A DNA stretch of 64,000 nucleotides, taken from IMG/VR virus record IMGVR_UViG_3300021400_001610, positions 18,490 to 82,489 of that record; one strand, 5' to 3'. Positions 381 through 17,919 of this stretch are shown in pieces. The notes beneath the pieces were generated by a model that saw only the letters and a list, made by a program, of their open reading frames with translations, did no database searches and was not told where the DNA came from. Position 1 is the first letter of the stretch. Every line of letters begins with the position of its first letter. Both the position numbers and the translations under genes were made by a program. The DNA comes from a virus (Duplodnaviria > Caudoviricetes).

Positions 381-423
381 TTCTTTCTCCCTTCTTATTT
401 TTGTCTGTGTTATACTATGAATA

Positions 424-1714: not shown

Positions 1715-1936
1715 TTAATCTTTTCTTAAAATTTTTAATTGATATTCGTTTAACCAATATTTACTATACTCTTCAAAATCTAAAGTATCAGAACGTAAAT
1801 CTCTTGCAATTGCATCTATTAATACAAACTCTAAAGAAGAAATATTTAACGATGTTAAATAGTAAGGGGTGAGACAAAAATCTTTGGAAAAAATTGCGAG
1901 TGTTTCATCTTTTTTTGTTAATTGATAAATAATCAT
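1715..1936 (-). CDS. hypothetical protein
   Basis: 73-aa ORF with RBS AAAGGAG and own promoter. Confidence 0.6.
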   Translation of the reverse strand: MIIYQLTKKDETLAIFSKDFCLTPYYLTSLNISSLEFVLIDAIARDLRSDTLDFEEYSKYWLNEYQLKILRKD

Positions 1937-2061
1937 TGTTTTTCTCCTTTCTCTATCATGTTTATTATACTTTAAAAATAAAGTTCTGTCAACCCCTTTT
2001 AATAAGTTAATTTTTTAACGATCGGCCCGGGCGCGGAGCACGGGAGCATGCTCCCGAACTC

Positions 2062-2727: not shown

Positions 2728-2880
2728 TTTGTTTTCTCCTTCCGTTTTCTTTCCTTTGAACAATTATATATTACCATATAGGACGCAAGAAGTCAATACC
2801 TTTTTTTAAATTTTTTAAAGACGAAATATTCTGACAATGGGAGCACGGCGCCCGGGCGAAGACGAACAGATGTTCGTCTT

Positions 2881-3000
2881 CTATTTAGTCTTCAAAATGA
2901 AATACATTATTATTAGACCTATGATTGTGCCTACCCCTACTGCCGAAAAAGCTTGTAATGTAGTTAGAGTAGAATCGTGGATGAAATATAGAATAAACAT
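2881..3000 (-). CDS. 39-aa single-TM membrane peptide
   Basis: MFILYFIHDS...GVGTIIGLIIMYFILKTK after RBS AAAGGAG. Confidence 0.55.
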   Translation of the reverse strand: MFILYFIHDSTLTTLQAFSAVGVGTIIGLIIMYFILKTK

Positions 3001-3058
3001 TTTTTCTCCTTTTTTCTTTATTATACTACAAAAGGGTTGACTTGTCAACTCTTTTTTA

Positions 3059-3241
3059 TTATTTTTCTTCTTCATACCATACTTTATCAATCACTAAATT
3101 GTCTATCAACTTTTCGGGATTGTCTAAAATGTAATTCATTACCGATTCTTTATTGCTGGAATCTGTGACTATTTCAAAATCTTCTTTTTCTCCATCACAA
3201 GTTAAGTCAAACTTAATTGTAAATTCGATGTGCTGTATCAT
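3059..3241 (-). CDS. acidic hypothetical protein
   Basis: 60-aa ORF, RBS GAAGGGAG, own promoter. Confidence 0.65.
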   Translation of the reverse strand: MIQHIEFTIKFDLTCDGEKEDFEIVTDSSNKESVMNYILDNPEKLIDNLVIDKVWYEEEK

Positions 3242-3300
3242 TTTTCTATCTCCCTTCTGTGATTATATGTTATCACATTTGATGTCGTTTGTCAAGTCTT

Positions 3301-3465
3301 TTAGCACATTTTATCTTTACCAGTTTCTGTATCTGTAACACAAACTTCTCCATCTACATCTCCATCGGTTAAAGAAATAAACTTTTCTGCGGCTTCTTCA
3401 TAAGAATCAGCGTCAACATACCCACTAATGATAAAACTGCCTGATACAAAGTAAATTTTACTCAT
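3301..3465 (-). CDS. acidic 54-aa hypothetical protein
   Basis: True start MSKIYF at 3465 after RBS GAAGGGAG; the upstream extension in the ORF track crosses promoter and terminator. Confidence 0.65.
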   Translation of the reverse strand: MSKIYFVSGSFIISGYVDADSYEEAAEKFISLTDGDVDGEVCVTDTETGKDKMC

Positions 3466-3604
3466 TTTCTTTTCTCCCTTCTTTATCTTATCTATATTAT
3501 AGCAAATGGATCGACTTTTGTCAACCCTTAAATTAAAAAAAGAATATTCTGAAAATTTACGTCTTCGGCGCCCGGGCCGCGAACGTATGTTCGTGATCGA
3601 GTCT

Positions 3605-3635
3605 AAAAAAAAGAACGGACGTTTTGTCCGTTCTT
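3605..3635 (-). terminator. intrinsic terminator
   Basis: Stem AAGAACGGAC/GTCCGTTCTT plus U-run on minus strand, directly after the 3644 stop. Confidence 0.75.
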
Positions 3636-3643
3636 TTCTATCG

Positions 3644-3973
3644 TCAAGCGAGTGCGTAACCCTTGACCTTACCCTTACCCTTGACCTTGATTTCACTTAC
3701 TACGAGTCCATCAATCTGACGAAGCAACGCACTTGCTTTCTGCACCGAGATTTCAACCTTTTCGGCAACCTCTCCTGCGCTCTGCGGTTCGTGAGTGAGA
3801 ACTTCCTTAATCTTCGCCTTAATCGGCTCGTTAGCGATTGCGGTCTTGGAAGGGGAGTTCTTCCGCTTTGCGTTCTTCTCATCCATCTTGATGATTTCGC
3901 TCTTTGCCATTTCGATGACTTCTGCGTTTACGTTACCGTTGATGATTGCTTCGAACATTTCTCTCTTAGTCAT
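3644..3973 (-). CDS. winged-helix DNA-binding protein, MTKRE family paralogue 1
   Basis: MTKRE N-terminus, ISxQKASAL helix, KVKGKGK wing shared with 4745, 8204, 13356. Confidence 0.85.
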   Translation of the reverse strand: MTKREMFEAIINGNVNAEVIEMAKSEIIKMDEKNAKRKNSPSKTAIANEPIKAKIKEVLTHEPQSAGEVAEKVEISVQKASALLRQIDGLVVSEIKVKGKGKVKGYALA

Positions 3974-4162
3974 TTCGTACCTACTTTCTCGTGAAGGTCA
4001 CGACCCTTTTTAACTACTTGGGAGTTCCTGTCTCCCCTCTCTGTGATTATATATTACCATACTTTATTGAGTTTGTCAATACCTTTTTCAAAATTTTTTA
4101 TTAGTTATTTTTTTCACAAGGCGGCCCGGCAAAAGACGAACATATGTTCGTCATATTTTACC

Positions 4163-4333
4163 CTATACATTTTTGCTGTCATCCAAATTAAAATATTCTC
4201 TGATCCAAAATTCTTTTCCGCACTCGCAACAACGTGCTTTTGCTAAAACTCTAATATAGTCTCCGTAATAATCATATTTTTCTATATAGATTATTTCATA
4301 GTCTTCTGAATTACAATTTTTACATTTTGCCAT
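4163..4333 (-). CDS. 56-aa Zn-ribbon protein
   Basis: Manually translated MAKCKNCNSEDYE...RCCECGKEFW; two CxxC pairs; RBS AAAGGAG. Confidence 0.6.
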   Translation of the reverse strand: MAKCKNCNSEDYEIIYIEKYDYYGDYIRVLAKARCCECGKEFWIREYFNLDDSKNV

Positions 4334-4347
4334 TTTATTTTCTCCTT

Positions 4348-4494
4348 TTAATCTTCTGTCTGTAAATAAACACTATTAGCAATTTCAACTGTTTTAATTG
4401 GAATATAATTTTCTTCAAGTTTGTCATAGACAAATACATTCATATTCATATCATAACTATCTAAAAGTTCGTTAATAAGTTCTCTTACTGTCAT
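4348..4494 (-). CDS. 48-aa hypothetical protein (MTxRELIxEL family)
   Basis: Manually translated MTVRELINELLDSYD...; RBS and promoter; N-terminus similar to 10312-10464. Confidence 0.6.
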   Translation of the reverse strand: MTVRELINELLDSYDMNMNVFVYDKLEENYIPIKTVEIANSVYLQTED

Positions 4495-4744
4495 TTTTTC
4501 TCTCCTTTCTGTGATTTTATTCTATCACATTTTATCTTGTTTGTCAAGACCTTTTTTCAACTTTTTTATTTTGTTTTTTCTCTCCTTTCTTCTTGACAAT
4601 TATATTATAAACGAAAGTCAAGAAAAAGTCAAGAACTTTTTAGGATGTATATTGTATACATGAAGCGGGCGCCCGGGCCACCGTCGGAATATTCTGAAAA
4701 TTTACGGCGAAAAAAAAGAGGAGCAAGTGCTCCCCCCTTTTCTT

Positions 4745-5092
4745 CTATGCTACAGAGTAACCTTTCTGCTTACCCTTACCCTTTACCTTAACTTCTACTG
4801 CGGAAAGCTGACCATCTGTGACCAACTGTCTGCAAAGAGCACTTGCTTTCTGCGTGGAGATTTCCAACTCTCCTGCGATTACACTTGCCACAATCGGCTC
4901 ATTCTTACCGCCGAGGAACTCGACAATCTTTGCCTTAATCGGCTCATTGGCAATCGCTGTCTTTGACGGAGTGTGGGAACGCTTTGCATTTCTTGCGTCC
5001 ATCTTCTCGATTTCCGCCTTTGCGAAGTCTGCGATTTCGATTACATCAACGTTTGCGATTACTGCGTTCAGAAATTCTCTCTTAGTCATCAT
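4745..5092 (-). CDS. winged-helix DNA-binding protein, MTKRE family paralogue 2
   Basis: SKTAIANEPIKAKI, ISTQKASALCRQL, EVKVKGKGKQKGYSV. Confidence 0.85.
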   Translation of the reverse strand: MMTKREFLNAVIANVDVIEIADFAKAEIEKMDARNAKRSHTPSKTAIANEPIKAKIVEFLGGKNEPIVASVIAGELEISTQKASALCRQLVTDGQLSAVEVKVKGKGKQKGYSVA

Positions 5093-5209
5093 TTTGGTTT
5101 CCTTTCTGACCCTTTAGGTGGTTGTCATCCCTTTCCTTTATCTTGACTTTATTATATCACCTTTTCTTTGACTTGTCAAGACTTTTTTTTAGAACTTTTT
5201 TAATTTTTT

Positions 5210-5273
5210 TGGTGGTTTACCGTCACCACCGTTTTATGTTACGGCTTGGGGAGCATCATCTTTACTATCTCCC
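5210..5273 (-). ncRNA. candidate small structured RNA
   Basis: Own promoter (TTGACA 5313-5308, TAATAT); hairpins GGGAG/CUCCC, CCGU/ACGG and GGUGGU/ACCACC (the last two overlap); only a 6-codon ORF. Confidence 0.3.
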
Positions 5274-5460
5274 TTGTTGTATATATATTATCACTTATGA
5301 CCCTATTTGTCAACAACTTTTTGCTATGTATTTTGTATACATGATTTCTTTTACGCTTTAGTGCGGTGAAGCGGCGCCCGGGCCGAGCAAACGTATGTTC
5401 TTTTGTGGAGTAAAAAAATAGGGCAAGACGCGTCCGTCTCGCCCTCGTTCCTATCCACTT

Positions 5461-5592
5461 TCAGAACGTTGCGCCTAATTGCTGTCGCGCCCGCGGTGGA
5501 AGGCTATGGCGCGGTGAGTTGGTACCACTCACTATTCGGCTTACATTTCTGTCATCGCGCCTTGCCATCGGCGCTTCGGTATGAACTTTCAT
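5461..5592 (-). CDS. 43-aa GC-rich small ORF (or structured RNA)
   Basis: RBS AAAGGAG, promoter, MKVHTEAPMARRDD...; terminator hairpin ~5419-5446. Confidence 0.35.
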   Translation of the reverse strand: MKVHTEAPMARRDDRNVSRIVSGTNSPRHSLPPRARQQLGATF

Positions 5593-5636
5593 TTGAGTTA
5601 TCTCCTTTCTGTGATTATATATTATCATATTTGGTA

Positions 5637-5828
5637 TCATTTGTCAATAAGTTTTCTCGTATATATCAAATATTCTTCTGCTGTCATCTCTTTTATTGTG
5701 GCCTTATCATCACAACTATCAAACCAATAATCAATCATATAATTAATAGCGCGATTTTTGTTGATGAAACGCCCAACTATATCTCCATTTGTGTTAATTA
5801 CACAATATAATCTTTTTACTTTTTTCAT
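5637..5828 (-). CDS. hypothetical protein
   Basis: MKKVKRLYCVINTNGDIVGRF...; start could be the GTG at 5834. Confidence 0.6.
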   Translation of the reverse strand: MKKVKRLYCVINTNGDIVGRFINKNRAINYMIDYWFDSCDDKATIKEMTAEEYLIYTRKLIDK

Positions 5829-5900
5829 TTTCACTTGGATTTCCCCCTCTCTGTGATTATATATTATCATATTCGATGTGGTTTGTCAAGTGTTTTTTTA

Positions 5901-6110
5901 TTATTTTCTCATTGCGTCACAGTAATATTTATAAATTTCATCGAAAGTATATTGATAACCGCAATCACAATTGACTACATGATGCATAGCAACGTATTCA
6001 TTGCCTTTATGCGTAAAGAAATCAAAATCTTCTATAGTAGATTCGTAGTCATATCCGCCACACTTGGGACAACCATCAAATTCTTTATAATCTTTAAATT
6101 TAATTTTCAT
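5901..6110 (-). CDS. Zn-ribbon protein
   Basis: CPKC ... CDCG pairs; RBS AAAGGAG; architecture like 4163-4333. Confidence 0.7.
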   Translation of the reverse strand: MKIKFKDYKEFDGCPKCGGYDYESTIEDFDFFTHKGNEYVAMHHVVNCDCGYQYTFDEIYKYYCDAMRK

Positions 6111-6146
6111 CTTTTTATCTCCTTTTCTTTTTGTGATTATATATTA

Positions 6147-6323
6147 TCACATTTCTGCAAGTTTGTCAAGTGCTATTAATAATCTTTTCTTATTTTTATA
6201 AAGTCTATTGTTTGTGCAATACGTACAAGTGCCATGATTTCTGCAAGTATGATCGATTGCCTTTGAACCATAATACTTTTTTCTTTTCTCTTTTCTATGT
6301 TCAATCGCCTTGTCAAGTGCCAT
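6147..6323 (-). CDS. small basic Cys/His phage protein
   Basis: SKAIDHTCRNHGTCTYC motif; start moved to MALDKA after RBS GGGAGG. Confidence 0.7.
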   Translation of the reverse strand: MALDKAIEHRKEKRKKYYGSKAIDHTCRNHGTCTYCTNNRLYKNKKRLLIALDKLAEM

Positions 6324-6454
6324 CTTATTTACCTCCCTTGCAATTATATGATAACATATCACTTCTACTTTGTCAACCCTTTTTTAAATGTTTAAATATT
6401 CTGAAAATTGGCTTCGGCCCGGGCGAAAATGATGCCAAAAGGCATCATTTTTAT

Positions 6455-7090
6455 CTATTCAGGAAGGCAACTTGCTCCAATTCTATCACAACCCATTTCA
6501 ATATATTTTTCCATTTCTTCACGAGTACGAATACCGCCACTTGCCTTAATTTTCGTATCATTATGAATGTTTGCTTTCATAATTTCGATGTCTTTGAATG
6601 ATGCACCGCGAGTTCCAAACCCTGTGGAAGTCTTTACATAGTCTGCGGGAGTATTGTCTACAATCTTTGTGGCGATTGCGATTTCTTCATCAGTAAGATA
6701 ACAAGTTTCAATTATTACTTTCAGAATTACTCTATCATTCATTTTATTAATTCTGTCGTAAATAGTCTCGATTTCTTTTTTAATAAGATGATAGTTACCG
6801 TTTTTCATGTCTCCAATATTGATAACCATATCAATCTCATTTGCCCCATCGAAAACGGCGGATTCGGCTTCTTTAACCTTTGTCATTGTGTTACAATTTC
6901 CAAGAGGAAAACCCACAACTGTGCAAATTTTAAGTGTTGGGAAGAAGTTATAAACGAAGTCTACATAGTGAGAAGGAATACAGACAGAGGCACAACCCTT
7001 TTCTACTGCCTTTTCGCACAGATTCCAAATATCATTATTCGTTGCGGTTGCTTTCAGAAGTGTGTAGTCGATGTGTTCATAAATATTCAT
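6455..7090 (-). CDS. deoC: deoxyribose-phosphate aldolase
   Basis: DYTLLK, VGFPLG, GANEIDMVIN, KVIIET, Schiff-base VKTSTGF, KASGGIRT, RIGAS. Confidence 0.95.
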   Translation of the reverse strand: MNIYEHIDYTLLKATATNNDIWNLCEKAVEKGCASVCIPSHYVDFVYNFFPTLKICTVVGFPLGNCNTMTKVKEAESAVFDGANEIDMVINIGDMKNGNYHLIKKEIETIYDRINKMNDRVILKVIIETCYLTDEEIAIATKIVDNTPADYVKTSTGFGTRGASFKDIEIMKANIHNDTKIKASGGIRTREEMEKYIEMGCDRIGASCLPE

Positions 7091-7224
7091 TGTTGTTTCT
7101 CCTTTCCTTTATCTTGTCTATATTATAACAGAAGTATTTCAATTTGTCAACTATTAAATTGTATTAAAATTGTATTTGTCGGCGGCCCGGGCAAAACAAG
7201 TCGAAAAAAAATAGACCCGAAGGC

Positions 7225-7386
7225 CTATTCATAAGAAGAGATATCTATTAAATTTCCCTCATTATCAAAATTAAAACTAATACCACCGTAACTTGACATA
7301 CTGTCTATTTCTATAGAATTATTGTCTACATATACTATATTAGCCTTAATAGTTTCTAATATTCTTTTTAATTCTTCTTTTGTCAT
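7225..7386 (-). CDS. 53-aa hypothetical protein
   Basis: Manually translated MTKEELKRILETIKANIVYVDNNSIEID...; RBS and promoter present. Confidence 0.6.
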   Translation of the reverse strand: MTKEELKRILETIKANIVYVDNNSIEIDSMSSYGGISFNFDNEGNLIDISSYE

Positions 7387-7580
7387 TGTATTCACCTTTC
7401 CTTTCCTTTATCTTGTCTATATTATAGCAAACATCTTTTATTTTGTCAACCCCCAAATTAAAAGTTTTAATTTTCAGATAATTTTAGTGGCCCGGGCGCC
7501 ACGAACGTATGTTCGCAAATAAGTGAAGCGGTTCACTTTATGTAAACCGCTTCGTATAAGGAAAGGAGGAAGTTAGTTAA

Positions 7581-7838
7581 TTACATAATATGGATTTCAA
7601 ATTGTTCCAACATCGTCATTGCAACTAATCCAACGGTAATTCCTAACATGCAACCGTCTTTGATTTTGTCTGCAACGGGACGTTGAAGAACAAAACATCT
7701 TGTAAAGGAAAGAATGTTGGCGAACAGATAAACGAACTGTCCAATCAAGAAATCTGCCTTTACTACACACTGTGCAGTAATCAGAGTAATCAATACCAAG
7801 TAATTCAATTCTTTCCATACCATCTGAAATTTAGTCAT
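7581..7838 (-). CDS. small multi-TM membrane protein
   Basis: Three hydrophobic segments in 85 aa; terminator hairpin GAAGCGGTT/AACCGCTTC at 7525-7553. Confidence 0.7.
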   Translation of the reverse strand: MTKFQMVWKELNYLVLITLITAQCVVKADFLIGQFVYLFANILSFTRCFVLQRPVADKIKDGCMLGITVGLVAMTMLEQFEIHIM

Positions 7839-7885
7839 TCTCTTTGTTTCCTTCCTTGTTTCTTTCTGATACTATTATAACGCAT

Positions 7886-8026
7886 TTATGCGATGTTGTC
7901 AACCTTTTTTTGAAAATCTTTTAAAAGATTTTCGAGATGAACTTTCTGCATCTTCTCAAAAGCCTGTCTATTCGGAATCAGTGTTGTATATTTCTCTAAT
8001 TCGTTTACGATTTCCTTTTTAGTCAT
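7886..8026 (-). CDS. 46-aa hypothetical protein
   Basis: Manually translated MTKKEIVNELEKYTTLIPNRQAFEKM...; RBS GAGAGG. Confidence 0.55.
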   Translation of the reverse strand: MTKKEIVNELEKYTTLIPNRQAFEKMQKVHLENLLKDFQKKVDNIA

Positions 8027-8203
8027 TTCTTTTTCCTCTCTTTCTGTAATTATATGATAACACACTTTCCCATAAAAGTCAACCCCTTTTTCATATTCAT
8101 AATTTTCTGAAAATTAGTTGCGCCCGGGCGCCTGTCTGAATATTCTGACAATTAATTTCCAAAAAAAAGAAGGGCGATTTGCCCTTCCTTTATTTTCCAA
8201 AAA

Positions 8204-8548
8204 CTAACAGACGCTATATCCCTTCTGTTTGCCCTTGCCCTTAACCTTAACCTCAACGGCAGTCAGTGTACCACCTTCTACCATCTGCCGACAGAGTGCG
8301 GAAGCCTTCTGAACAGAGATTCCGACCTCTGCGCCGATTGCACTTGCCGTGATAGGCTCGTCACAATCCTTGAGGAAGTCTGCAATGGCAACCTTGATAG
8401 GCTCGTTTTCCTGTGCCTTCTTGGACACCGTTGCTCTACGCTTTTCGTTCTTTGCGTCCATCTTTACGATTTCGGATTCTGCGAACTTGATAACTTCGTC
8501 AGTGATGTTGCCTGCGATAACCATTTCCATCATTTCTCTCTTAGTCAT
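8204..8548 (-). CDS. winged-helix DNA-binding protein, MTKRE family paralogue 3
   Basis: Start moved to MTKREMM at 8548; VGISVQKASALCRQM, EVKVKGKGKQKGYSV. Confidence 0.85.
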   Translation of the reverse strand: MTKREMMEMVIAGNITDEVIKFAESEIVKMDAKNEKRRATVSKKAQENEPIKVAIADFLKDCDEPITASAIGAEVGISVQKASALCRQMVEGGTLTAVEVKVKGKGKQKGYSVC

Positions 8549-9105
8549 TTTGTACCTTCTTTCTTGCGTTGGTCGCAACCCTTTTTCATTAGTTTTAGGA
8601 AGTTCCTGTCTTCCTTTTTCCTTTTGTGTCTTTATTATATCAGATTTTCGGAAATCTGTCAAGACCTTTTTTAACTTTTTTTGAAAAACTTTTTATTTTG
8701 GGAGAAGTTTTTCTATTTCCCTTTTCTGTATCTTTATGATAACATATTTTCGGGATTTTGTCAAGGGGAAAATTTCTTTTTTGTTGAGAAAGACGCATCT
8801 TTTTTCCGCTCACGCTCAACATTCTCGGAATAGTTTTTCTTTCTTTCCCCTTGACAATTATATTATAAAGGAATTTTCTAAAAAAGTCAACCCTTTTTAT
8901 GAAAAAATTATAGAAAAATAATTCTGAATTTTGGGAACTTTCAGAAAATTCTGAAAATTTTCGGCGCCCGGTCGATCCGAATTATGGGAAATTATGGGAG
9001 TGGGCGATCGCCCGGGCGCACTGTGCGTCAGAATTTTCTGAAAATTTGCAGAAAAATAAAGGTCCCATTATGACTAATGGGACAATTTTCCAAGAATTTT
9101 GGGAA

Positions 9106-9237
9106 TTACATCAACACTGTGAAAATATTCCAAAACGATAACGGACAACCCTCTAAATTCTTTGAAAGAATTTCGATGTATGAAGCGGTGAACCAAACAC
9201 CAAAAGCGATTAACGGCGTACATAAAATCTTTTTCAT
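9106..9237 (-). CDS. 43-aa hydrophobic peptide
   Basis: Manually translated MKKILCTPLIAFGVWFTASYIEIL...; start overlaps the stop of the upstream ORF. Confidence 0.55.
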   Translation of the reverse strand: MKKILCTPLIAFGVWFTASYIEILSKNLEGCPLSFWNIFTVLM

Positions 9238-9470
9238 ACTAACTGCCACCCCCAAGATTCCTGTGCATCAAGAAAACCCTTGATAGTCCAAATTGCTTTC
9301 TTGATGTCTTCTCTTTCAATAATTTCGCCTGTGTAAATGTTTTCCAAACATTCCGCATCATCGGCGTCCATTGCCGTTGCAATTTCTTTGAGTACGTATT
9401 CGCCGAAAGCGAGCCACGCCCTATCATCCTGTGTGATTGTCATTACGATTTTCTTGTCAAACTGTGCCAT
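9234..9470 (-). CDS. acidic hypothetical protein
   Basis: Start moved to MAQFDKK after RBS AAGGAG. Confidence 0.7.
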   Translation of the reverse strand: MAQFDKKIVMTITQDDRAWLAFGEYVLKEIATAMDADDAECLENIYTGEIIEREDIKKAIWTIKGFLDAQESWGWQLV

Positions 9471-9675
9471 ATCTTTTCTCCTTTCTCTCTCTGTGATTAT
9501 AATATACCACATATCACCTACACTGTCAACCCCTTTTTATAAAAATACTTCGTTAATTAATTCACAAGGCGGCCCGGGCGCTACGAACATATGTTCTCTT
9601 AATAAGGCGAGAACGAACAACCTTTCGTTGTCCGTTCTCTTTATATGTAAGGAGGAAACAAATGTCATTTCGTTT

Positions 9676-10119
9676 TTAGTTAATACCTTTCAAAACTTCC
9701 ATAATCTGACTTTCATCAAAGGCTTCACCCTTCCAATTATTTCTATTCGGTGTTTCATCATCGAACAGAATACCGTTGGGGAAGTTTACTACTTCTTCTT
9801 TCGGTGTACCATATTTTACAATGTGGATTTCATCGAAGTGAACGCTTTTCAGATGTGCTTTGAGCCACTGAATTTTTGTTGTTGTGACCTTTTCATCGAA
9901 TTCGGCGGTGGAATTCTTTGCCAACCAACTTACGATTCCGATTGTATATCCTTTTCTCTGAAGATTGTTGAGAACCTTTGCGAGTGCCGACAGACGCAGG
10001 AGCGGAGCTGCCTGTGCATACGGTGTAGCGTCTTCAGCTTTCAGATAGTCGAGCCATCCATTAACACCGTAGAAGTTTGCGATTGTTCCGTCCATATCGA
10101 AGTAGATTGCCTTGGTCAT
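9676..10119 (-). CDS. HAD-superfamily phosphatase, 5'(3')-deoxyribonucleotidase-like
   Basis: Motif I YFDMDGT, motif IV ILFDD. Confidence 0.8.
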   Translation of the reverse strand: MTKAIYFDMDGTIANFYGVNGWLDYLKAEDATPYAQAAPLLRLSALAKVLNNLQRKGYTIGIVSWLAKNSTAEFDEKVTTTKIQWLKAHLKSVHFDEIHIVKYGTPKEEVVNFPNGILFDDETPNRNNWKGEAFDESQIMEVLKGIN

Positions 10120-10311
10120 TTTGTTTTCCTCTCTTTCCTTTTCTCTATATAGAGTATATCAAAAATTTCTCGATTTGTCAACTATTTTTACCGATTCGGA
10201 AAATGTTTTTTAATTCTAAATATTCTGAAAATTGGCGGGCGCCCGGGCAGAAAGAACGTGTGTTCGTCCATGGCGCCCCGGGCGAAAAAAAAATAAGCCT
10301 TTCGGCTTATT

Positions 10312-10464
10312 TTAAAAGTAAATTACTACTTCATTTTCATTCTGTCTACTTTCTACTACTGAATAAATATCATCGTCTTCTGCGTTTCTTACTCTTGCAT
10401 TTTCGTCAACTTCTCCATTAGCTACCATTGCATTCAGTTCTTCAATCAGTTCTCTAATTGTCAT
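10312..10464 (-). CDS. 50-aa acidic hypothetical protein (MTxRELIxEL family)
   Basis: Manually translated MTIRELIEELNAMVANGEVDENARV...; RBS GAGG and promoter. Confidence 0.6.
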   Translation of the reverse strand: MTIRELIEELNAMVANGEVDENARVRNAEDDDIYSVVESRQNENEVVIYF

Positions 10465-10559
10465 TGTATTTACCTCTTCTTTCCTTATCTTGTCTTTATT
10501 ATATCACAGCTTCGCCAGCTTGTCAACAACTTTTTTTCTCCGGTTCATCCGAAGGAGGC

Positions 10560-11033
10560 TTATGCCTCCTCCGCCATCATCTTCATCATCTGTTTTTCGT
10601 TGATGAAGCTTGCTTTTTCAAACTTAATCTGATAAGCGATTCCATTTACTGTCAGGTCGCCGTCTTCGGTGAACGGTACATTGTCCTTTTCCCATTCCTG
10701 TCCGTTCAGCTCGGTCATCAGCTTTTCGAAAATCTCGCCTTTGTTGTACTTGCTTTCGCTTGCCAGCTCATCGAAGAACTTTTCGGAGCAGAGAACCTTT
10801 GCTCCCATGCTCATCAGCAGAGCTTTCTGACCTTTGTTCGGCTTGAACCGAAGTGCGTACCCAGCTCCACGGCTCGCCTTGTCCAGCTTCAGCAGCTCCG
10901 GCAGAATCTCAGCTGTCACGAGGACGAACCAGATATTTCCAGCAGCTCTGAATCCGAAAATGTAGTTGTGGGTGTAGCTATGACGATTGTAAAATCCTAC
11001 CATTTTTGCTTTGAGTGCGACGTTGGTTGACAT
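10560..11033 (-). CDS. putative PD-(D/E)xK-fold nuclease-like protein A
   Basis: Start moved to MSTNVA after AAAGGAG; NKGEIFE...DGDL...YQIK motif; homologous to 12289-12828. Confidence 0.7.
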   Translation of the reverse strand: MSTNVALKAKMVGFYNRHSYTHNYIFGFRAAGNIWFVLVTAEILPELLKLDKASRGAGYALRFKPNKGQKALLMSMGAKVLCSEKFFDELASESKYNKGEIFEKLMTELNGQEWEKDNVPFTEDGDLTVNGIAYQIKFEKASFINEKQMMKMMAEEA

Positions 11034-11109
11034 AATATGCTCCTTTCCAATTCCTACCAATCTCCCCCTGTCATAGACAGTTTACTACAAATACAAATAT
11101 TCGTCAAAT

Positions 11110-11743
11110 TGCATAGATATACATTGACCGTTGAAATTTCAACGTTTTTAGAACTTTATACATGAATATTCATGCATTATACATTGTATACAAAGTGCAT
11201 ATGCAAAAAACAGTGCATAATATACATGTTTATGCATAAAATCAAACCCGAAAACGTTGAAATTTCAACGTTTTTATGTATGTTCTTAAAAAACAATGAA
11301 TATTCATGGATTTTACCGATTATACATAAAAATAAATTTTCATGCACGCCCGGGCGGAATTGAACCGAAATCGGTTCGATTCATAAATGAATCGAACCGA
11401 ATCCGACTCAGTTAGTTAGTTAGATTGAACTAACTCGGTCCGGCGGTCGCCCTGCGTGCAGTATACTGTATACTGTATACCGCATACTGTATACACGACT
11501 GAATAGTCTGACAATTCTGAAAAGAACGTATGTTCGTGCATAAATATACACTTGTTCGCACCCGCGAACATCCGTTTACTATTCCGATAATTAGTTTATG
11601 CGGAATAGTTCAAGGGTGTGAAGCGGAGAAAACGTTGGAATTTCAACGTTTTCAACTATTCCGATAATTAGTTTTCTCGGAATAGTAAACAAATGTTCGC
11701 GTTTCGGTATGTATATTCATGCATACGAATGCATATCTATGCA
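11110..11743. promoter_or_regulatory. ArgR(ARG)-box-like palindromes TGMAT-N4-ATKCA
   Basis: Cores at 11110, 11163, 11223, 11297, 11537, 11710, 11730; the last two are a tandem pair with 20-bp period. Confidence 0.45.
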
Positions 11744-11895
11744 CGAACAGAACATATGTTCGCGAACAGACCATAAACATATGTTTGTATACTGTATACA
11801 CGGATACTGTATACTGTATACTGTATACACGTCAGAATAGTCTGATAATTGTTAGTTAGACGGAACTAACTCGAGTGTACTGTATACTGTATACA
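11461..11895. repeat. GTATACT heptamer tandem blocks / TGTAT-N5-ATACA palindromes
   Basis: Blocks at 11461-11495, 11786-11829, 11876-11895; the first two continue into a shared GAATAGTCTGA(C/T)AATT. Confidence 0.9.
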
Positions 11896-11916
11896 CAATA
11901 CAATGTAAGTACAATC

Positions 11917-12142
11917 CTTTAGTCTGATAAAGTGGTAACGCGTTAATGCGTTAGTCCTTTATCCCTTTAACGTACTAAAGTATACCAATATGGTATACTT
12001 TAGTACGTTAAACTTCTAAACTTTAGTAGACTAAAGTCTACTGTATTGGTAGACTTTAATGCGTTAAACTTCTGAACTTTAGTGTGGTAAAGTGGACCAC
12101 AGACGTACACTTTATTACGTTAATCCTTTAGTGTAATAAAGT
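11917..12142. repeat. iteron-like array CTTTA-N7-TAA(AG) with perfect 22-bp inverted repeat
   Basis: Units at 11917, 11965, 11998, 12021, 12054, 12077, 12110, 12126; perfect IR 11966-11987 / 11991-12012. Confidence 0.9.
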
Positions 12143-12214
12143 CCCTTGCAAGTATCATGCCAAGAGATATATTTAAGAGTGATTGAAAAAGATATATGAA
12201 TTGCAATTTATGTA

Positions 12215-12243
12215 TTGACGTATCCGGCAATATAGCATATAAT
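12215..12243 (+). promoter_or_regulatory. sigmaA-type promoter
   Basis: TTGACG-17-TATAAT upstream of 12289. Confidence 0.8.
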
Positions 12244-12288
12244 CTATAGTATCAGATAACACATTTGAATTGTAAAGGAGACGAAACA

Positions 12289-12828
12289 ATGACTACTAAC
12301 AGAACTACAATGAATAATGAAATCAAAATGGCTATCCTTGAAAAACTGTTTGCAGTAGAAGCAACTCACACCTATGGATTCGCTATCCGTGACAATGGCA
12401 TGGTTAAGGCGGCAATAGTTGAAAATGCCGATGATGTAATTCCCTTTATAACAGTATGCGAACGTAACTCAAAGTCGCACGGTGGCGTATACGGTGTGCG
12501 GATGTGGAATTCTAATAAAGCATTTGAGATTATCAAAGAGTATGCACGTGAGATTATTACACTTTGCACAGTAGAAGAATTCGAACGGCAGTTCAAAGAA
12601 GCAAAGGAAAATGGTTTCAAAGGCAATCGCGGTGACTTCTTCGAACCTACTTTTGCAAAGGCTACTGGAGCAAAACTGAATACAGTAAGAAACGAAAAAT
12701 GCACAGACTGCGGAGATGTGAACCTGAATGGAGAAGAAATCCAATTAAAACTGTGGAATGCCACATTGACCACCGAACCACAAGTAAATACATTCTATGA
12801 AAGAATGATTGCAAACAAGGCTGAGTAA
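12289..12828 (+). CDS. putative PD-(D/E)xK-fold nuclease-like protein B
   Basis: Start MTTNRT after AAAGGAG; NRGDFFE...CGDV...IQLK motif; terminator AAGGCT/AGCCTT plus T-run follows. Confidence 0.7.
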   Translation: MTTNRTTMNNEIKMAILEKLFAVEATHTYGFAIRDNGMVKAAIVENADDVIPFITVCERNSKSHGGVYGVRMWNSNKAFEIIKEYAREIITLCTVEEFERQFKEAKENGFKGNRGDFFEPTFAKATGAKLNTVRNEKCTDCGDVNLNGEEIQLKLWNATLTTEPQVNTFYERMIANKAE

Positions 12829-13355
12829 GCCTTGTTTTTTTTATGCCGTGAGCCTTTATTCTTTGATTTCCGCGACTTTGATGCCTACATTGAGTATTTA
12901 TACCATTAACGATAGAAAAGTCGCTTATATCGGCGAATACGGCGGGAGCACGGTAGTCTGTTAAATAATTAACAATTATGCTCCCGATGCTCCGATGCTC
13001 CGTTAAAAAATTAACAAACATGCTCCTGTTTTCGGGAAGACGTACCTGTAAATAAATGGAAGCCCTTGAGTTAAATCCCTCTAACTTTTGGGAAAATCTC
13101 CCATGGTATTTTTTACCACCCTCCAATTCTGACAACGAAATTTTTCGTGAAAAATTTAACAAAGGGCAAAAGATTTTTCTCGCCGAAGACAGAATTTTCT
13201 GACAATTCAAAGGCGGGGCGTAGTTTTCGGAATTGCGCGAATTGTCTGACAATTCAGCTCCTGAGCGTGGAAAATAATCTCCACGAAATCAAAATTTCAT
13301 TTACAAAAAGATTCAAATAAAAAAGAGAGCCTCAACCTTCGGCTCTCTTCAATCC

Positions 13356-13712
13356 TTAAACGTAATATGCTCTTCGAATTCCTTTCCCCTTAATTTTAAC
13401 TTCAGTCGCCCGTATACGCCCTTCGCGCACCAAACTTGTACAAATCGCCGTAAAACGCTGTCTCGTAAGCTCCGGCGCCACCTCGACCATTATATCGGCA
13501 ATCGTAAACGGCTGACCGGGATTACTTTGTAGGAGTTCACAAATTCGATCTCCGTAGGCCCTATTCTCCTTATAGAGTTCAGTTTCCTTCGATCTCGCCA
13601 ACGTCGCCGCCGCCTGAGCATTTAACTTTTTCAATTCCTTTTTACATTCTTCAATTAACTCTTCACTAATTTCTCCATGAATTACAGCTTCAAGCCTTTC
13701 TTTCCGTGTCAT
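13356..13712 (-). CDS. winged-helix DNA-binding protein, MTKRE family paralogue 4 (divergent)
   Basis: MTRKERLEAVI, LTRQRFTAICTSLVREGRI, EVKIKGKG. Confidence 0.8.
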   Translation of the reverse strand: MTRKERLEAVIHGEISEELIEECKKELKKLNAQAAATLARSKETELYKENRAYGDRICELLQSNPGQPFTIADIMVEVAPELTRQRFTAICTSLVREGRIRATEVKIKGKGIRRAYYV

Positions 13713-13731
13713 TTATTTTCCTCCATTTAAG

Positions 13732-13995
13732 TTATTCATTGATATAAGAAGCCCGCCTTTTCGTGGCTCTTTTTCTACATTGTATACATTTTCTTTTTGC
13801 GTTGACTTTTTTCGAAGGACACCATGCTGGATGGTCGCATCCATAACACCTGCCCTTCGGTAATCTTCTATATAAAGCTCTCATGTTTGTGTTTTCTCGC
13901 TCCCACGCTTTTAATGCTTCACACTTATAAGCTAATATGCATATTTCATAGCACATAGGACTTGGTTCGACCCCTATCGTTGTGCATTTAATCAT
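13732..13995 (-). CDS. Cys-rich hypothetical protein
   Basis: 87-aa ORF with several CxxC; overlaps the upstream stop. Confidence 0.6.
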   Translation of the reverse strand: MIKCTTIGVEPSPMCYEICILAYKCEALKAWERENTNMRALYRRLPKGRCYGCDHPAWCPSKKVNAKRKCIQCRKRATKRRASYINE

Positions 13996-14239
13996 TTTTA
14001 TTATCCTTTTTATATACGCCCGCGTAACAATACCCTTCCATATCTACGAATGAATGATGGGCTTTACAAATACCTTGTATAGATGTAGTTCTTTCAAAGA
14101 ATTCACAATTTTTACATTTGACGATACTTTCATAAACTTCTATTAATTCATCTATGTCTGCGCGGCGCCAGTCATCTTCTTCTTTATGCTTCCAAAGTAT
14201 TTTTGACTCATCTACTTCAGTTCCAATTTGAATTATCAT
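13988..14239 (-). CDS. Cys-motif hypothetical protein
   Basis: VKCKNCEFF...C...C motif. Confidence 0.65.
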   Translation of the reverse strand: MIIQIGTEVDESKILWKHKEEDDWRRADIDELIEVYESIVKCKNCEFFERTTSIQGICKAHHSFVDMEGYCYAGVYKKDNKND

Positions 14240-14520
14240 ACTTCACCGTCCTTTCTACGCACGCCGTAGGAGCAATAATCTTCATCTTTACAGAACCCGC
14301 CGCCATTTACGTTCCTTATCGCACAATATCTTCCTTTCATAAAATCGCTGTCTATACGCAGATACTTACAATCTTTACATCTAATTACCTCTACAGCATC
14401 TATGGTAGGGGCGCTATCGATGTCATCTTTGTAGACCACTTCGACGTATTCCCAATCACCATTTTTCATTGGTTCGAAGCGCCCGCTTGATTCAAGAGAA
14501 TCTGCATCTATTAATCTCAT
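14236..14520 (-). CDS. MRLIDAD-type phage protein with Cys cluster
   Basis: MRLIDADSL ... APTIDAVEVIRCKDCKY ... YCSYG. Confidence 0.75.
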   Translation of the reverse strand: MRLIDADSLESSGRFEPMKNGDWEYVEVVYKDDIDSAPTIDAVEVIRCKDCKYLRIDSDFMKGRYCAIRNVNGGGFCKDEDYCSYGVRRKDGEV

Positions 14521-14526
14521 TATTCC

Positions 14527-14715
14527 TTACTTCCTGTATATATTAATAATAACTTCTGCTACATTATCTTTAGGTTCAAAATATTTAGCACATTGTTTTC
14601 CGTTTATATTTTTGATGCGATATTCGTTTTCTCCATCGGTTATTGTGAGGATTATTCGGTCTCCGTATATAAGTATCATATCTTCTAACTGCTTAATTAG
14701 TTTTTGTATATTCAT
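14527..14715 (-). CDS. hypothetical protein
   Basis: 62-aa ORF in a tightly packed operon. Confidence 0.6.
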   Translation of the reverse strand: MNIQKLIKQLEDMILIYGDRIILTITDGENEYRIKNINGKQCAKYFEPKDNVAEVIINIYRK

Positions 14716-14718
14716 ACT

Positions 14719-14955
14719 TCACCATCCTTTCATCTTCGCTCCGCAGTTTGGGCAATATTTAAAAGAATATGCTCCACGGTCATATCCGCATTGGTCACAC
14801 TTATATAACATTGACCCCGGAATATGATTTGGCATCCACTGCCCTATATTCGGCTCTAACGCCTTAATTATTTCATCAATTTCATCCACGCTATCCCATG
14901 GAAGATAATCAGTTAAATATCCTTTTACTTTTACCAATGCTTCTTCTTTTGTCAT
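14719..14955 (-). CDS. Zn-ribbon protein (CPNCGAKM type)
   Basis: CDQCG...YCPNCGAKM. Confidence 0.75.
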   Translation of the reverse strand: MTKEEALVKVKGYLTDYLPWDSVDEIDEIIKALEPNIGQWMPNHIPGSMLYKCDQCGYDRGAYSFKYCPNCGAKMKGW

Positions 14956-15152
14956 TCTATATCACCGCTTATCATTTCTGCGATTCGCTCTGCTTCAGCC
15001 ATTGATATACCCCATCCGTTATACTTCCTGTGGCAATCATCGCATCCATGACTTAGGTCATCCTCACCGATTTCTGATGCATATCTACAATTGGTGCAGT
15101 ACATATAATATAGTTCTTCATATATGAGTTTCGCTATCTCTTTCTTTGTCAT
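14952..15152 (-). CDS. Cys-rich hypothetical protein
   Basis: CTNC...CDDC; overlaps both neighbours by 4 bp. Confidence 0.7.
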   Translation of the reverse strand: MTKKEIAKLIYEELYYMYCTNCRYASEIGEDDLSHGCDDCHRKYNGWGISMAEAERIAEMISGDIE

Positions 15153-15715
15153 TCTTCCTCACCTCTCATATCTGCTCCGCAGTTGGGACAGAAATGTTTC
15201 GGCGCATCCCATTCGACATATCCGCATACAGAACAACTGCTAAACATCTCACCACCCGTTGACTTTTCCGTCCATTTTCCTGTTTTCGGCCGTGCGAAAT
15301 ACTTCTGCGCGAATCCGACTATCCACTCTGTAAATGAGATTTCAATCGGCTCTGACGGATATGTATGTTCTTTCCATAGCGTGTTTTCATCTACAATATG
15401 TTCTCCCCACGGAAGGTATCTTGAGTGCGACCACACGAAACCTAAACCTTCGTGCCAGTTCGCATAATAGAAATTGTCAAGCCTTCGACCTACCCAGTAA
15501 TCGTCTAATGACTCCACATAGTAGAATTTCAATTCATTTTCATCATCTGTCTTCGGATCTGCTATTTCCTTTGCCATTTCATTGACCAAATCTTCCATAT
15601 CGTCTCGGTCTATTTTAATTTGTACAATGCATTTAGTCTTCGACTCTGCAGGTGGAAGCGCCAGAATTGCGTTTATTACGTCTCGTCTATTAATAGTATC
15701 ATCGCTCTTGCTCAT
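15149..15715 (-). CDS. Zn-ribbon protein (CPNCGADM type)
   Basis: Start moved to MSKSDD after GGGAG; CSVCG...FCPNCGADM. Confidence 0.75.
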   Translation of the reverse strand: MSKSDDTINRRDVINAILALPPAESKTKCIVQIKIDRDDMEDLVNEMAKEIADPKTDDENELKFYYVESLDDYWVGRRLDNFYYANWHEGLGFVWSHSRYLPWGEHIVDENTLWKEHTYPSEPIEISFTEWIVGFAQKYFARPKTGKWTEKSTGGEMFSSCSVCGYVEWDAPKHFCPNCGADMRGEEE

Positions 15716-16178
15716 AGTAATCTTTCTCCCTTCTAATACATCCTGAACATGGAAAATCAGTATCATATGTTCCAACATGTCTACATCCGTCACAAGTTAA
15801 TACAAATGGCTGTGCAGATGGAAATGATATAATGTCAGCAATTACTTGATCATGGTCTACTGATTCACCAACCTCGCTCTTTTCGATTCTGTTTTTAATA
15901 ATTTCTATTGCATCTTGTTTACTAAAAGGAACTGATTTCTTATCTTTTAATTCTCTAATTTTTTCCTGCATTTTATGCAGCATATCATTCGTAGCCTCTT
16001 GACATTCTTTACAATATGCACTTTGCTCTTGCAATACTTTGATTGCTATATGCAATGCTTCTTGCATATCTTTTTCTATTCCACTATACCACGTATTTAG
16101 CTCACCTTCGCCATAGTCATTTATATTAAATAACATAAGCATTTTTGCTGCTTTTGCTGCTTTTTCTTCTCTTGTCAT
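15699..16178 (-). CDS. hypothetical protein with C-terminal Cys cluster
   Basis: 159-aa ORF, CDGC...CSGC. Confidence 0.7.
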   Translation of the reverse strand: MTREEKAAKAAKMLMLFNINDYGEGELNTWYSGIEKDMQEALHIAIKVLQEQSAYCKECQEATNDMLHKMQEKIRELKDKKSVPFSKQDAIEIIKNRIEKSEVGESVDHDQVIADIISFPSAQPFVLTCDGCRHVGTYDTDFPCSGCIRREKDYYEQER

Positions 16179-16181
16179 TTT

Positions 16182-16466
16182 TTACCTCATTTTTGTACCG
16201 CAATTAGGACAATAATTATATATATACAGCACTTTATGTTGTACTTTTCCACATATAGGACATTTAAGATTAATCCAATTATTCCATCCATCGCCGTCAT
16301 ATTCTTCAATCCATTGTTCCGTTTTAATTTCTTTTAATGGACAGTTCTTTCTTCTTTTTTGAAAAACTACTTTTTCTTCAGTTATTAAACAATATAAATC
16401 ATCATAATTTAAAAAACAACTATCACATGAATCTGGCATTGTTATACTATCAATATAAATTCCCAT
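16182..16466 (-). CDS. Zn-ribbon protein (CPNCG type)
   Basis: CDSC...C...CPL and CPICG...YCPNCGTKM; leftward promoter ~16497-16527. Confidence 0.75.
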   Translation of the reverse strand: MGIYIDSITMPDSCDSCFLNYDDLYCLITEEKVVFQKRRKNCPLKEIKTEQWIEEYDGDGWNNWINLKCPICGKVQHKVLYIYNYCPNCGTKMR

Positions 16467-16611
16467 TTACTTAACTCCTTTTCTTTTCTTCTAAAATAAT
16501 TATAACAGTTTTTTACGTTTACGTCAAATTTTTGTTTACGTACTCTGCGGCCGCGCCAAAATTTGACTTCTTCAGCATCCTGTGCTATACTTATATATAG
16601 GAGGACACGTG

Positions 16612-17919
16612 ATGAATAGGCTGAAGCTTGATTTTACTTTAGAGTCGGCAAAAGAACGAGTCGACTTTATTAATACATATATAAAACAATTTGATAACTT
16701 AACGGAGAAAGAAATTACGACTATTGAAGAATATTTGTTATGGGGTAAGGATGAAAATGGAATTGCCATTGGCGCCGGAACGGGATTAGAAACGAGATGG
16801 AGTAAACCAAAAGAAGCAGAATCGCTTGACGCAGTTTTAGAAAACCCAGCTTTAGCAAATAGTCAACTTTGTTCGTTGAATGATGCAGTTGTTTATAAGA
16901 AAAATAGAGACGTTTTTAATAGAAATGAAGCGAGAAAACAGGCTCCCTCGTTTATTTTACGGATTTTTGAAGATTTGTGGAGAGATATAGATGAAACGGA
17001 ATTGGAGATTAATTTCTACGAAGAAAGAACTGGAAAAAGAAAAAATCCACCAAGGGATGAACTTGTAAAACGCTTTACAAATGAAGAGGTTGAACTCATA
17101 CGTGCGCGCAGCAAAAAACTCAATCAATATAAGTATTTGAAGTTGAGACATAAGTTAAAAGAGTTAAGAGTTGAACAGTTTACAATTAGAGACTCTTATA
17201 GATCAACTTTTAATATCACTCAATCTATTTATAGTCCAAAAGAGAAGACTTTTGTTTTTGATTATGATGTAGAAGTTTTGCCGTTGGGAATTAAAGAAGG
17301 ACAGGTTGGATACTTAATTTTTGATACGAACTTTGACCCCGGCGCCCTAACCGAAAAACAGCTACGTATGATTAGTGATTTAATTTGGAAGAAAAAGAAA
17401 AATCAAAATGAAAGAATTTTTGACTTTAGAAATTTAGAGATGGTTTATCAACTTTACTTATTTAAAGAAGACTTAAATGATAGAGTTGAAAAAATTGATT
17501 ATGATCATTTGGTTGAGAACAATTTGAAAGGATTGATTGATACTTTAAAGTTTTATGAATCAATTGCTGACTTAACAGATATACAACGTGAGATACTGCG
17601 GCTGAAAGAACAAAAAAAGAAAAATACAGATATAGCCGCGTATATTAATGAAAAGTATGGAAAAAGCTATACTGCTAATTATATTAGCACTATTTTTAAA
17701 CAAAAAATTATTAGTAGAATTAATGAAGCAGTAAAACTTCATCAAGATACAATTGAAAATTGTTTCTTTGAAGAGAACTTTAAAGCATGCTGTGATTGCG
17801 GCAGAATTTTATTATTAGATAGCAGAAATTGGGTTAAAAAAGCTAGAAGCAAAGATGGCTTTCAAAATAGATGTAAGAGATGCGAGCACGAAATGAGAAG
17901 GAAAAAGAAGGGGAATTAG
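16612..17919 (+). CDS. putative transcription factor: sigma70-r4/LuxR-like HTH plus C-terminal Zn finger
   Basis: LTDIQREILRLK...DIAAYINEKYG HTH-like; CCDCG...RCKRC; promoter TTGACT(16563)-17-TATACT; start moved to MNRLK after GGAGG. Confidence 0.6.
   Translation: MNRLKLDFTLESAKERVDFINTYIKQFDNLTEKEITTIEEYLLWGKDENGIAIGAGTGLETRWSKPKEAESLDAVLENPALANSQLCSLNDAVVYKKNRDVFNRNEARKQAPSFILRIFEDLWRDIDETELEINFYEERTGKRKNPPRDELVKRFTNEEVELIRARSKKLNQYKYLKLRHKLKELRVEQFTIRDSYRSTFNITQSIYSPKEKTFVFDYDVEVLPLGIKEGQVGYLIFDTNFDPGALTEKQLRMISDLIWKKKKNQNERIFDFRNLEMVYQLYLFKEDLNDRVEKIDYDHLVENNLKGLIDTLKFYESIADLTDIQREILRLKEQKKKNTDIAAYINEKYGKSYTANYISTIFKQKIISRINEAVKLHQDTIENCFFEENFKACCDCGRILLLDSRNWVKKARSKDGFQNRCKRCEHEMRRKKKGN

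Follow-up and report, generated by a model that had tools for sequence, protein, structure and literature searches.

In phage T5, the iss (injection stop) region comprises more than 1 kb of non-coding DNA that lies in or at the edge of the pre-early block, carries boxes for a host protein (DnaA) and is matched by a second repeat region at a distance of some kb; in that phage too, its function is unproven (10.1101/866236). It is the closest described object to the element reported here, a gene-free region dense in palindromes, termed the hub, in the genome of an uncultured phage from the rumen or gut (Duplodnaviria; Caudoviricetes). The window, that is the whole stretch of 64,000 nucleotides analysed, corresponds to bases 18490-82489 of the 82.5-kb linear viral record IMGVR_UViG_3300021400_001610, which is rated 70% complete. 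Like iss, the hub is a long untranslated region with nested repeats and palindromes whose order is kept among relatives, with boxes for host DNA-binding proteins and with a partner repeat region some kb away. The two differ in that the boxes are paired DnaA boxes in T5 and LexA-type boxes here, that homology to the T5 proteins A1 and A2 is missing here, and that the host here is a Gram-positive-type anaerobe. Two-step entry and a terminal repeat are known for T5 but not for the present phage, and parts of the hub also serve ordinary early promoters of the same phage. We propose, with a probability of about 0.4, that the hub is a landing and boundary region for several proteins, an enlarged control spacer between cassettes that would control a host-takeover array and two divergent genes.

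Other known systems resemble the hub in part, and repetitive extragenic palindromes with their bacterial interspersed mosaic elements (REP/BIME) and LexA-controlled phage switches have one aspect each in common with it. REP/BIME, known from enterobacteria, and the hub are both mosaics outside genes, put together from a few stock palindromic units whose order and orientation vary. REP/BIME often follow genes and some bind architectural proteins, and two hub units, the palindrome termed Tpal and the CTATTCCG-N14-CGGAATAG site, likewise recur in host intergenic DNA. However, REP/BIME reach hundreds of copies against 5-10 per genome here, and the hub units are common to phages and many genera, with no RAYT transposase seen and most families phage-specific. 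In LexA-controlled switches such as the dinBoxes of Bacillus thuringiensis phage GIL01 and tum of coliphage 186, one to three boxes overlap and repress a promoter. The present phage resembles these in having host SOS boxes and no LexA of its own, but its boxes are many, none lies on a promoter and four are in the gene-free hub. Iteron origins (lambda ori, the lactococcal phage ori or 'per' fragments) are built from one iteron family with a cognate initiator gene nearby. They share with the hub non-coding direct and inverted repeats beside an AT-rich block and active promoters, whereas the hub has about ten families and no recognised initiator.

The gene-free region extends over 1252 bp (11037-12288) between two divergent paralogous genes. 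An initial annotation had described gene-free DNA at 11061-11900; the absence of genes stands, since the longest open reading frame in the region (63 aa, inside a module missing from the relative L001) has no family match, but the true limits are wider. The same annotation saw the region as built of repeated palindromes, and its coordinates proved correct for all the units checked (the 24-mer, the 14-bp inverted repeat, the GTTAGTT pair, the CTATTCCG pair and the GC core). Between 11061 and 11900 there are 23 perfect inverted repeats (stem of at least 7, loop of at most 16), covering 307 of the 840 bases (37%), while dinucleotide shuffles of the same DNA gave 1.5 ± 1.1 with a maximum of 4, a 15-fold difference. 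No other 840-bp stretch in the 64 kb is as dense, the best-placed frame holding 25 inverted repeats against a median of 2. About ten palindrome families make up the hub, and no other part of the window has non-coding arrays of tandem or iteron-like type. Several families are nested in a large imperfect palindrome (11523-11762) with arms of about 110 nt that are about 75% alike, centred on Tpal copy 3 and flanked by a direct repeat of 47 bp (11470-11516 and 11804-11850). The units are as follows, with a strand given where one was assigned.

11110-11347: AT-rich module (26% G+C) with Tpal copies 1 and 2 and TATACAT, TGCATA and ATGAATATTCAT repeats; variable among relatives
11127-11146: Tpal (20-mer palindrome) copy 1, one mismatch, by motif match
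11251-11274: Tpal copy 2, a perfect 24-mer around the core AACGTTGAAATTTCAACGTT, by motif and inverted-repeat scan
11348-11355: GC core GCCCGGGC, last of the 17 that mark early cassettes, by motif match
11371-11400, minus strand: 14-bp perfect inverted repeat, terminator-like, in the terminator slot of the P0001 cassette, by inverted-repeat and consensus scan
11414-11435, second copy 11851-11870: AGTTAGTT-N6-AACTAACT palindrome (GTTAGTT-N6-AACTAAC), by inverted-repeat scan
11459-11495, 11786-11829 and 11875-11895: GTATACT heptad arrays, by motif scan
11497-11517, second copy 11831-11851: CodY-like box GACTGAATAGTCTGACAATTC, belonging to the 47-bp direct repeat
11523-36, 11565-79, 11685-99 and 11749-62: four LexA-type boxes, within the large palindrome
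11578-11609, second copy 11655-11686: CTATTCCG-N14-CGGAATAG site (full form ACTATTCCG-N14-CGGAATAGT)
11628-11653: Tpal copy 3, one mismatch in the core 11631-11650, centre of the large palindrome
11917-12142: CTTTA-N6-TAAAG array, 56-bp period, with one perfect 22-bp inverted repeat; outside the limits first annotated

The Tpal 20-mer has three matches in the hub and none in 100 shuffles, and the GTATACT heptad has 16 matches where 0.02 are expected.

Homologous hubs were found in a strain (L151, flanking protein 99% identical), in L001 (89% protein identity in the flanking gene) and in the L001-like contigs L369 and L370, and the order of the elements is kept in all four. Conservation in relatives had been named as a check in the initial annotation, and it was found: blocks of the hub (11387-11436, 11487-11536, 11587-11636 and 11887-11986) are 90-96% identical to L001, while four-fold degenerate sites in the flanking genes reach 61-69%. 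Judged by this comparison the hub is under purifying selection, being better conserved than silent sites. The 14-bp inverted repeat is 100% kept in L001, the only other viral contig that has it. Compared with L001, the GTTAGTT and CTATTCCG palindromes keep their arms but differ in their spacers, and these units therefore look like sites for dimeric proteins. A search of cultured phage records for near-identical DNA gave no match to the hub.

The hub is at the same time plastic. The AT-rich left module (11110-11347) is present in L004 and L151 and missing from L001. There the gene for the P0001 homologue follows a hairpin, a GC core and about 150 bp, as in an ordinary cassette, so that the module of the window looks like an insertion into a cassette slot. 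There are about six LexA-type boxes in the L001 hub against four in the window, the CodY-like box occurs in four tandem copies in L369, and the array of L151 carries a 31-bp insertion.

The SOS box of Firmicutes (Cheo/DinR-type) is a 14-bp CGAAC-N4-GTTC/T palindrome. Boxes of the form CGAAC-N4-GTTY number 11 in the window against 0.57 expected, and the four in the hub are placed symmetrically about Tpal copy 3; the LexA unit of the initial annotation is thus of the right sequence type but loosely labelled, being four boxes. No LexA gene is encoded in the phage record. Five genomes, chosen solely because they share Tpal, were taken as candidate hosts. Four of them lack the perfect palindromic box CGAACRNRYGTTCG and the fifth has it once, whereas the window carries four such boxes plus near-perfect ones, and the boxes of the hub are closer to the palindromic consensus than any site found in the five genomes. 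Ahead of lexA, the form CGAACA(TCC/CTT)GTTTAC is found in three Clostridia genomes with Tpal; the copy in one of them (G002) matches the hub box at 11565-11579 at all 15 nt. Early regions of the whole phage clade are dense in LexA-type boxes (L164, L184, L186, L214), with ten of them within 6.5 kb in L164. The other operator names fared less well. The CodY box is a 15-bp palindrome with the consensus AATTTTCWGAAAATT; repeated palindromic boxes do exist where CodY units had been annotated, but they fit only 12-13 of the 15 positions, and at up to three mismatches 49 sites are found across this AT-rich genome. The ARG box of ArgR/AhrC has the core TGAAT-W4-ATTCA, and the units TGAATATTCA that had been called ARG-like are without its 4-bp centre and do not fit that label.

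All 17 GC cores lie between window -348 and 11348, the one in the hub being the last, as had been noticed at the outset. At each of the 17 early cassettes, GC cores, LexA boxes and CodY-like boxes are found again, and the parts common to hub and cassettes are the LexA-type box, the CodY-like box, the GC core and a terminator-like hairpin. A second hub lies left of the window (genome 17.87-18.29 kb, window -620 to -200) and contains two LexA boxes, GTATAC heptads, CodY-like boxes, two CTATTCCG-type palindromes, GC cores and a GTTTAGTTAGATTG unit. Together with the first hub it brackets an 11.7-kb array of strong-promoter cassettes and all 17 GC cores.

This second hub stands at the end of a larger repeat-rich non-coding zone left of the window (L269:16300-18290, genome coordinates), which runs from GTAGGTAAGG and CGTATAC repeats through a GC-rich segment and GCAGCTCC repeats to the LexA, GTATAC, CodY-like and CTATTCCG families. 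The GC-rich segment (about 16590-16770) could be a structured RNA.

The genes and promoters that flank the hub are the following.

10560-11036, minus strand: P0001, left flanking gene, 158 aa, paralogue of P0002, with homologues in L001, L002, L035 and L040
11079-11107, minus strand: likely P0001 promoter TTGACG-17-TAAACT, consensus scan 9/12
12215-12243, plus strand: P0002 promoter TTGACG-17-TATAAT, consensus scan 11/12
12289-12828, plus strand: P0002, right flanking gene, 179 aa, inverted with respect to its homologues in more distant relatives

P0001 and P0002 point away from the hub, and a ribosome-binding site GGAAAGGAG precedes the P0001 ATG at 11036. In a consensus scan these two outward-facing promoters were the only good sigma-70-type sites of the region, which bears out the opinion of the initial annotation that the region as a whole is not a promoter. 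Its wider claim of a protein-landing platform is supported in part, in so far as the region is non-promoter and selected and its units look like sites for dimers, some of them matching host-type operators; the choice between sponge, origin and terminus, which it had left side by side, is not decided by these features.

On the reading as a landing and boundary region, host LexA would load onto the entering DNA at the hub boxes, and other dimeric proteins of host or phage, for example the phage's small winged-helix paralogues, may occupy the remaining palindromes. The nucleoprotein complex so formed would insulate the 11.7-kb host-takeover array and could set the expression of the array and of the two divergent flanking genes by the state of the host (SOS, nutrition), while Tpal and the 14-bp hairpins would halt stray transcription from both directions. 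Several points weigh against this proposal. Binding of proteins to the hub is a prediction from its letters alone, and the candidate hosts come solely from the shared Tpal. The LexA-type boxes of the hub lie 400-700 bp from the flanking promoters and none overlaps a promoter, so that simple repression is not explained; both flanking genes face away, which leaves the terminators of the hub without an obvious transcript to stop. Modules have been gained, lost and multiplied among close relatives, which also fits a weak or redundant function or mobile repeats, and the iteron-like array with the AT-rich module would suit an origin equally well. If the hub is a protein-loaded boundary or a control centre, it would show how a large, virulent-looking phage of uncultured anaerobes ties its first genes to the SOS and nutritional state of the host, and it would be a second, independent example of the still unexplained region of the T5 iss type.

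The same box counts could be read as a decoy, in which clustered high-affinity boxes, multiplying with the phage DNA, would draw host LexA and perhaps CodY-type regulators off the chromosome by titration and thereby switch on host SOS or metabolic genes to the advantage of the phage. The near absence of CGAACRNRYGTTCG from the five candidate hosts, next to its four perfect and further near-perfect copies in the window, the rise to about six hub boxes in L001 and the position of the boxes away from promoters all agree with this, although the case is one of LexA-box counts only. With only 4 of some 14 boxes in the hub and most hub units not of a host type, we hold titration, which would depend on copy numbers and affinities, to be very unlikely, and we know of no case of a phage DNA sponge.

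The bracketing of a strong-promoter cassette array by two hubs of common families recalls T5, and the hubs could mark the ends of an 11.7-kb segment that enters first or is terminally repeated, with a part in DNA entry, end formation or packaging. The partner repeat region and host-protein boxes of iss point the same way, as does the 5'-deoxyribonucleotidase-type gene within the early cassette array, the T5 pre-early region having dmp. More than 100 related contigs are found in IMG/VR, of which the complete ones measure 115-136 kb, and a full genome of about 118 kb is expected here because the record is 70% complete; both sizes are in keeping with this reading. Several metagenome contigs end inside or beside the hub, but such breaks are expected at any repeat. 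The complete relatives close as circles with overlaps of 107-127 bp only, and the physical ends of the genome are therefore not readable from assemblies; the terminal repeats of these relatives were rejected as mere assembly overlaps. Against a T5-like boundary are also the lack of DnaA-box pairs and of homology to A1 or A2, and the terminase genes lie 7 kb off. We consider such a boundary quite improbable.

The arrays at the right of the hub bear on replication. The CTTTA-N6-TAAAG array is the hub component most widely conserved among relatives and is iteron-like in having at least three direct repeats of one unit. An initiator might bind there, the module of 26% G+C might melt, and loading of the DnaB-type helicase might be aided by the divergent promoters and palindromes. 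Encoding a DnaB-like helicase, a primase and Pol III alpha of its own, the phage needs an origin, and the hub offers the sole non-coding tandem or iteron-like arrays in the 64 kb, adjoined by an AT-rich block between divergent promoters. Elsewhere Tpal stands in the middle of a bacterial DnaA-box cluster and, in L026, just upstream of a DUF5906 primase-helicase-like gene. On the other hand, no DnaA box (at most one mismatch) occurs from window 1 to 16244, no initiator gene was recognised, the replication genes are 45 kb distant, the AT-rich module is missing in L001, and about ten unrelated motif families are far above those of known iteron origins. GC skew, which the initial annotation had suggested as a check for an origin, gave no origin signal and mirrors only gene direction along the window. 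A replication origin at the hub is on balance unlikely.

Transcription of the hub as one structured non-coding RNA that explains the stems had been named as the outcome that would speak against a platform. Such an RNA, or several, could run on the minus strand through the hub and end at the 14-bp hairpin. Both strands do fold far better than shuffles (z -12.8 and -14.2), minus is the strand of early transcription, and in L001 a gene that lies upstream and has the same direction could be transcribed into the hub. By consensus scan, terminator-like structures with AT-rich stems lie at 11400-11371 (minus), 11250-11275 (plus) and 11129-11144 (plus); the first has a short T-rich tail, and there are T runs at the Tpal copies. 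However, the better-folding strand is minus in the window (by 13 kcal) and plus in L001 (by 15 kcal), which argues for DNA palindromes rather than one selected RNA. Rfam 15 gave only hairpin-like miRNA matches of 20-31 bits against cut-offs of 60-195, no tRNA was found in the hub, the CTATTCCG site has 14-bp spacers without self-complementarity, and there is neither a good internal promoter nor a neighbour in the window that points into the hub. A scan of metagenomes for further hub homologues yielded two usable loci, too few for covariation statistics. The RNA explanation thus finds no support from an Rfam family or a constant folding strand, and we regard it as most improbable.

Of the hub families, Tpal is found well beyond this phage. 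The exact 20-mer AACGTTGAAATTTCAACGTT occurs in 32 other viral stretches, always intergenic and usually amid phage-specific operator-like repeats, and in 106 bacterial stretches, mostly of Anaerovoracaceae and other Clostridia, with 1-10 copies per genome; some genomes have 8-10 if symmetric variants are included, and a control pattern gave 0. At 23 or more loci it stands directly 3' of a tRNA gene, and next come a T run and short direct repeats such as TGACGTAAA, as in integrated elements. Among the bacterial loci (L042-L147, e.g. L042:400, L061:7005, L124:5573) Tpal abuts the 3' CCA of nine or more different tRNA genes in many Clostridia, and beyond the T run come two or three direct repeats of TGACGTAAA-like words and then a reverse-strand gene. 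The tRNA-adjacent Tpal looks like the edge of tRNA-integrated elements that would carry their own standard hairpin. In seven genomes of the Anaerovoracaceae/Mogibacterium type (L071:2800-3300, L107, L119, L122, L126, L072, L062), Tpal is found without a T run in the middle of a DnaA-box cluster (TTATCCACA, TTTTCCACA) between an uncharacterised 430-aa gene and, downstream, an alaX-like gene; the latter neighbour led us to reject this cluster as a dnaA-dnaN oriC. Readings of Tpal as parS, dif, Fnr/Crp or cre sites were rejected on inspection against the consensus sequences of those sites. A 32-nt Tpal query gave only noise against cultured phages and plasmids, so that Tpal is confined to uncultured Clostridia and their phages, and a literature search for the core returned no paper. 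As far as our searches went, exact palindromes common to phages, tRNA-adjacent islands and a DnaA-box cluster are undescribed. Since Tpal links phages, tRNA-adjacent mobile DNA and the DnaA-box cluster in one bacterial family, it offers a testable handle, both as a host-range marker for these phages and as bait for a DNA- or RNA-binding factor.

The CTATTCCG site has a similarly wide occurrence. Its form is aaCTATTCCG-N14-CGGAATAGtt, with an AT-rich spacer that is fixed at 14 bp and not self-complementary, and it was found in relatives, in an unrelated family of 40-kb phages and, in varied contexts, in candidate host genomes. By our estimate, chance alone would give about 14 matches per spacer length to the 16 specified bases, and we count as family members just 17 sites, which have AT-rich spacers and are flanked by aa/tt. 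In the 40-kb phages the site lies in the spacer between terS and terL, with a Tpal-like CGTTGAAATACCAACG at 20 nt and a tRNA gene downstream. This spacer (L253:703-1283, and in L245, L243 and L248) is 580 bp long and includes a GC-rich segment; in L243 the large terminase also bears a LAGLIDADG insertion. The idea that the site is the pac site of these phages is weakened by the tRNA gene in the same spacer. In the bacterial genome G002, Tpal, the CTATTCCG site and a third repeat are combined differently at several loci. A repeat of about 80 nt (...GTCGGCTTTGCCGATTTATGTTCAGCGG...) was seen there (L262, L265, L114) beside the CTATTCCG site, upstream of lexA and beside Tpal with a tRNA gene, which suggests a host family of mosaic intergenic elements.

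This distribution gives some weight to a selfish or near-neutral mosaic, in which a permissive spacer gathers mobile palindromes of Clostridia and their phages that resemble REP/BIME or miniature inverted-repeat transposable elements. Exact Tpal copies in unrelated phage and bacterial contexts, up to 8-10 in a genome, their position behind tRNA genes beside repeats that resemble integrase arm sites, and the recombined units of G002 would all be expected of such elements, and so would the differences in module presence and copy number between close relatives and the 47-bp direct repeat that flanks the large palindrome. A mosaic of this kind does not account for hub blocks that are far better conserved than silent sites, nor for the constant element order; most families are specific to the phage clade, the 14-bp inverted repeat occurs in one relative only, the LexA-type and CodY-like boxes are operator-like rather than REP-like, no transposase is linked, and copy numbers are far under those of REP families. 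We therefore judge an origin as mobile repeats to be quite unlikely.

Tpal and the CTATTCCG-N14-CGGAATAG site might instead be sites of an undescribed architectural protein of Anaerovoracaceae-type Clostridia, similar to the IHF of proteobacteria; the phage would join these sites to LexA boxes better than those of the host, forming two nucleoprotein hubs that close off the host-takeover module. Tpal occurs where IHF sites do, by analogy, namely at tRNA-linked integration sites, in the DnaA-box cluster and in phage control regions. A profile of P0001/P0002 run against the Tpal-neighbouring proteins of other phages recovered only L004, a relative, and none of the early proteins of this phage is common to unrelated phages bearing Tpal or the CTATTCCG site, so that no candidate binder emerged. 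The suggestion is a long shot; if true, it would make the hubs a Gram-positive counterpart of the injection-stop and first-step-transfer boundary of T5.

The flanking proteins gave no help in assigning a function to the hub, being without known family or fold. P0001 and P0002 are 23% identical by BLASTP (E 5e-8) and have no sequence match in Pfam, PHROG or the PDB; their family numbers more than 60 clusters without a Pfam domain and has G142, D143, Q152 and K154 among its invariant residues. The AlphaFold model of P0002 is confident (predicted local distance difference test 93, predicted template modelling score 0.87). Comparison with solved structures by Foldseek and VIA-align found no fold match (best Z 2.9), and an assignment of these proteins to PD-(D/E)xK was accordingly not confirmed. 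P0002 and its promoter are inverted here and in the nearest relatives with respect to more distant ones (L035-L041, L004, L150). A conserved non-coding element, ...CGCCGAT-N6-GCGACTTTT, lies left of P0002 in L004 and L150 and is found here inverted on its right (about 12900-12945), where a further 525 bp are also gene-free.

The gene content of the record is that of a large tailed phage, with a large terminase, a protein of 3557 aa, Pol III alpha, a DnaB-type helicase, a primase and an anaerobic ribonucleotide reductase. On the minus strand of the window, at 55480-58157, a RecJ-like exonuclease is apparently split by a GIY-YIG homing-endonuclease gene (56082-56780) into a DHH-domain gene (56868-58157) and a RecJ-like C-terminal piece (55480-56085). 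The record also has, on the plus strand left of the window (L269:1456-12501), a block of RNA-repair-like genes, which encode a DUF2828/TROVE-like protein, a kinase-plus-HD protein, two metallophosphatases and an RNA ligase.

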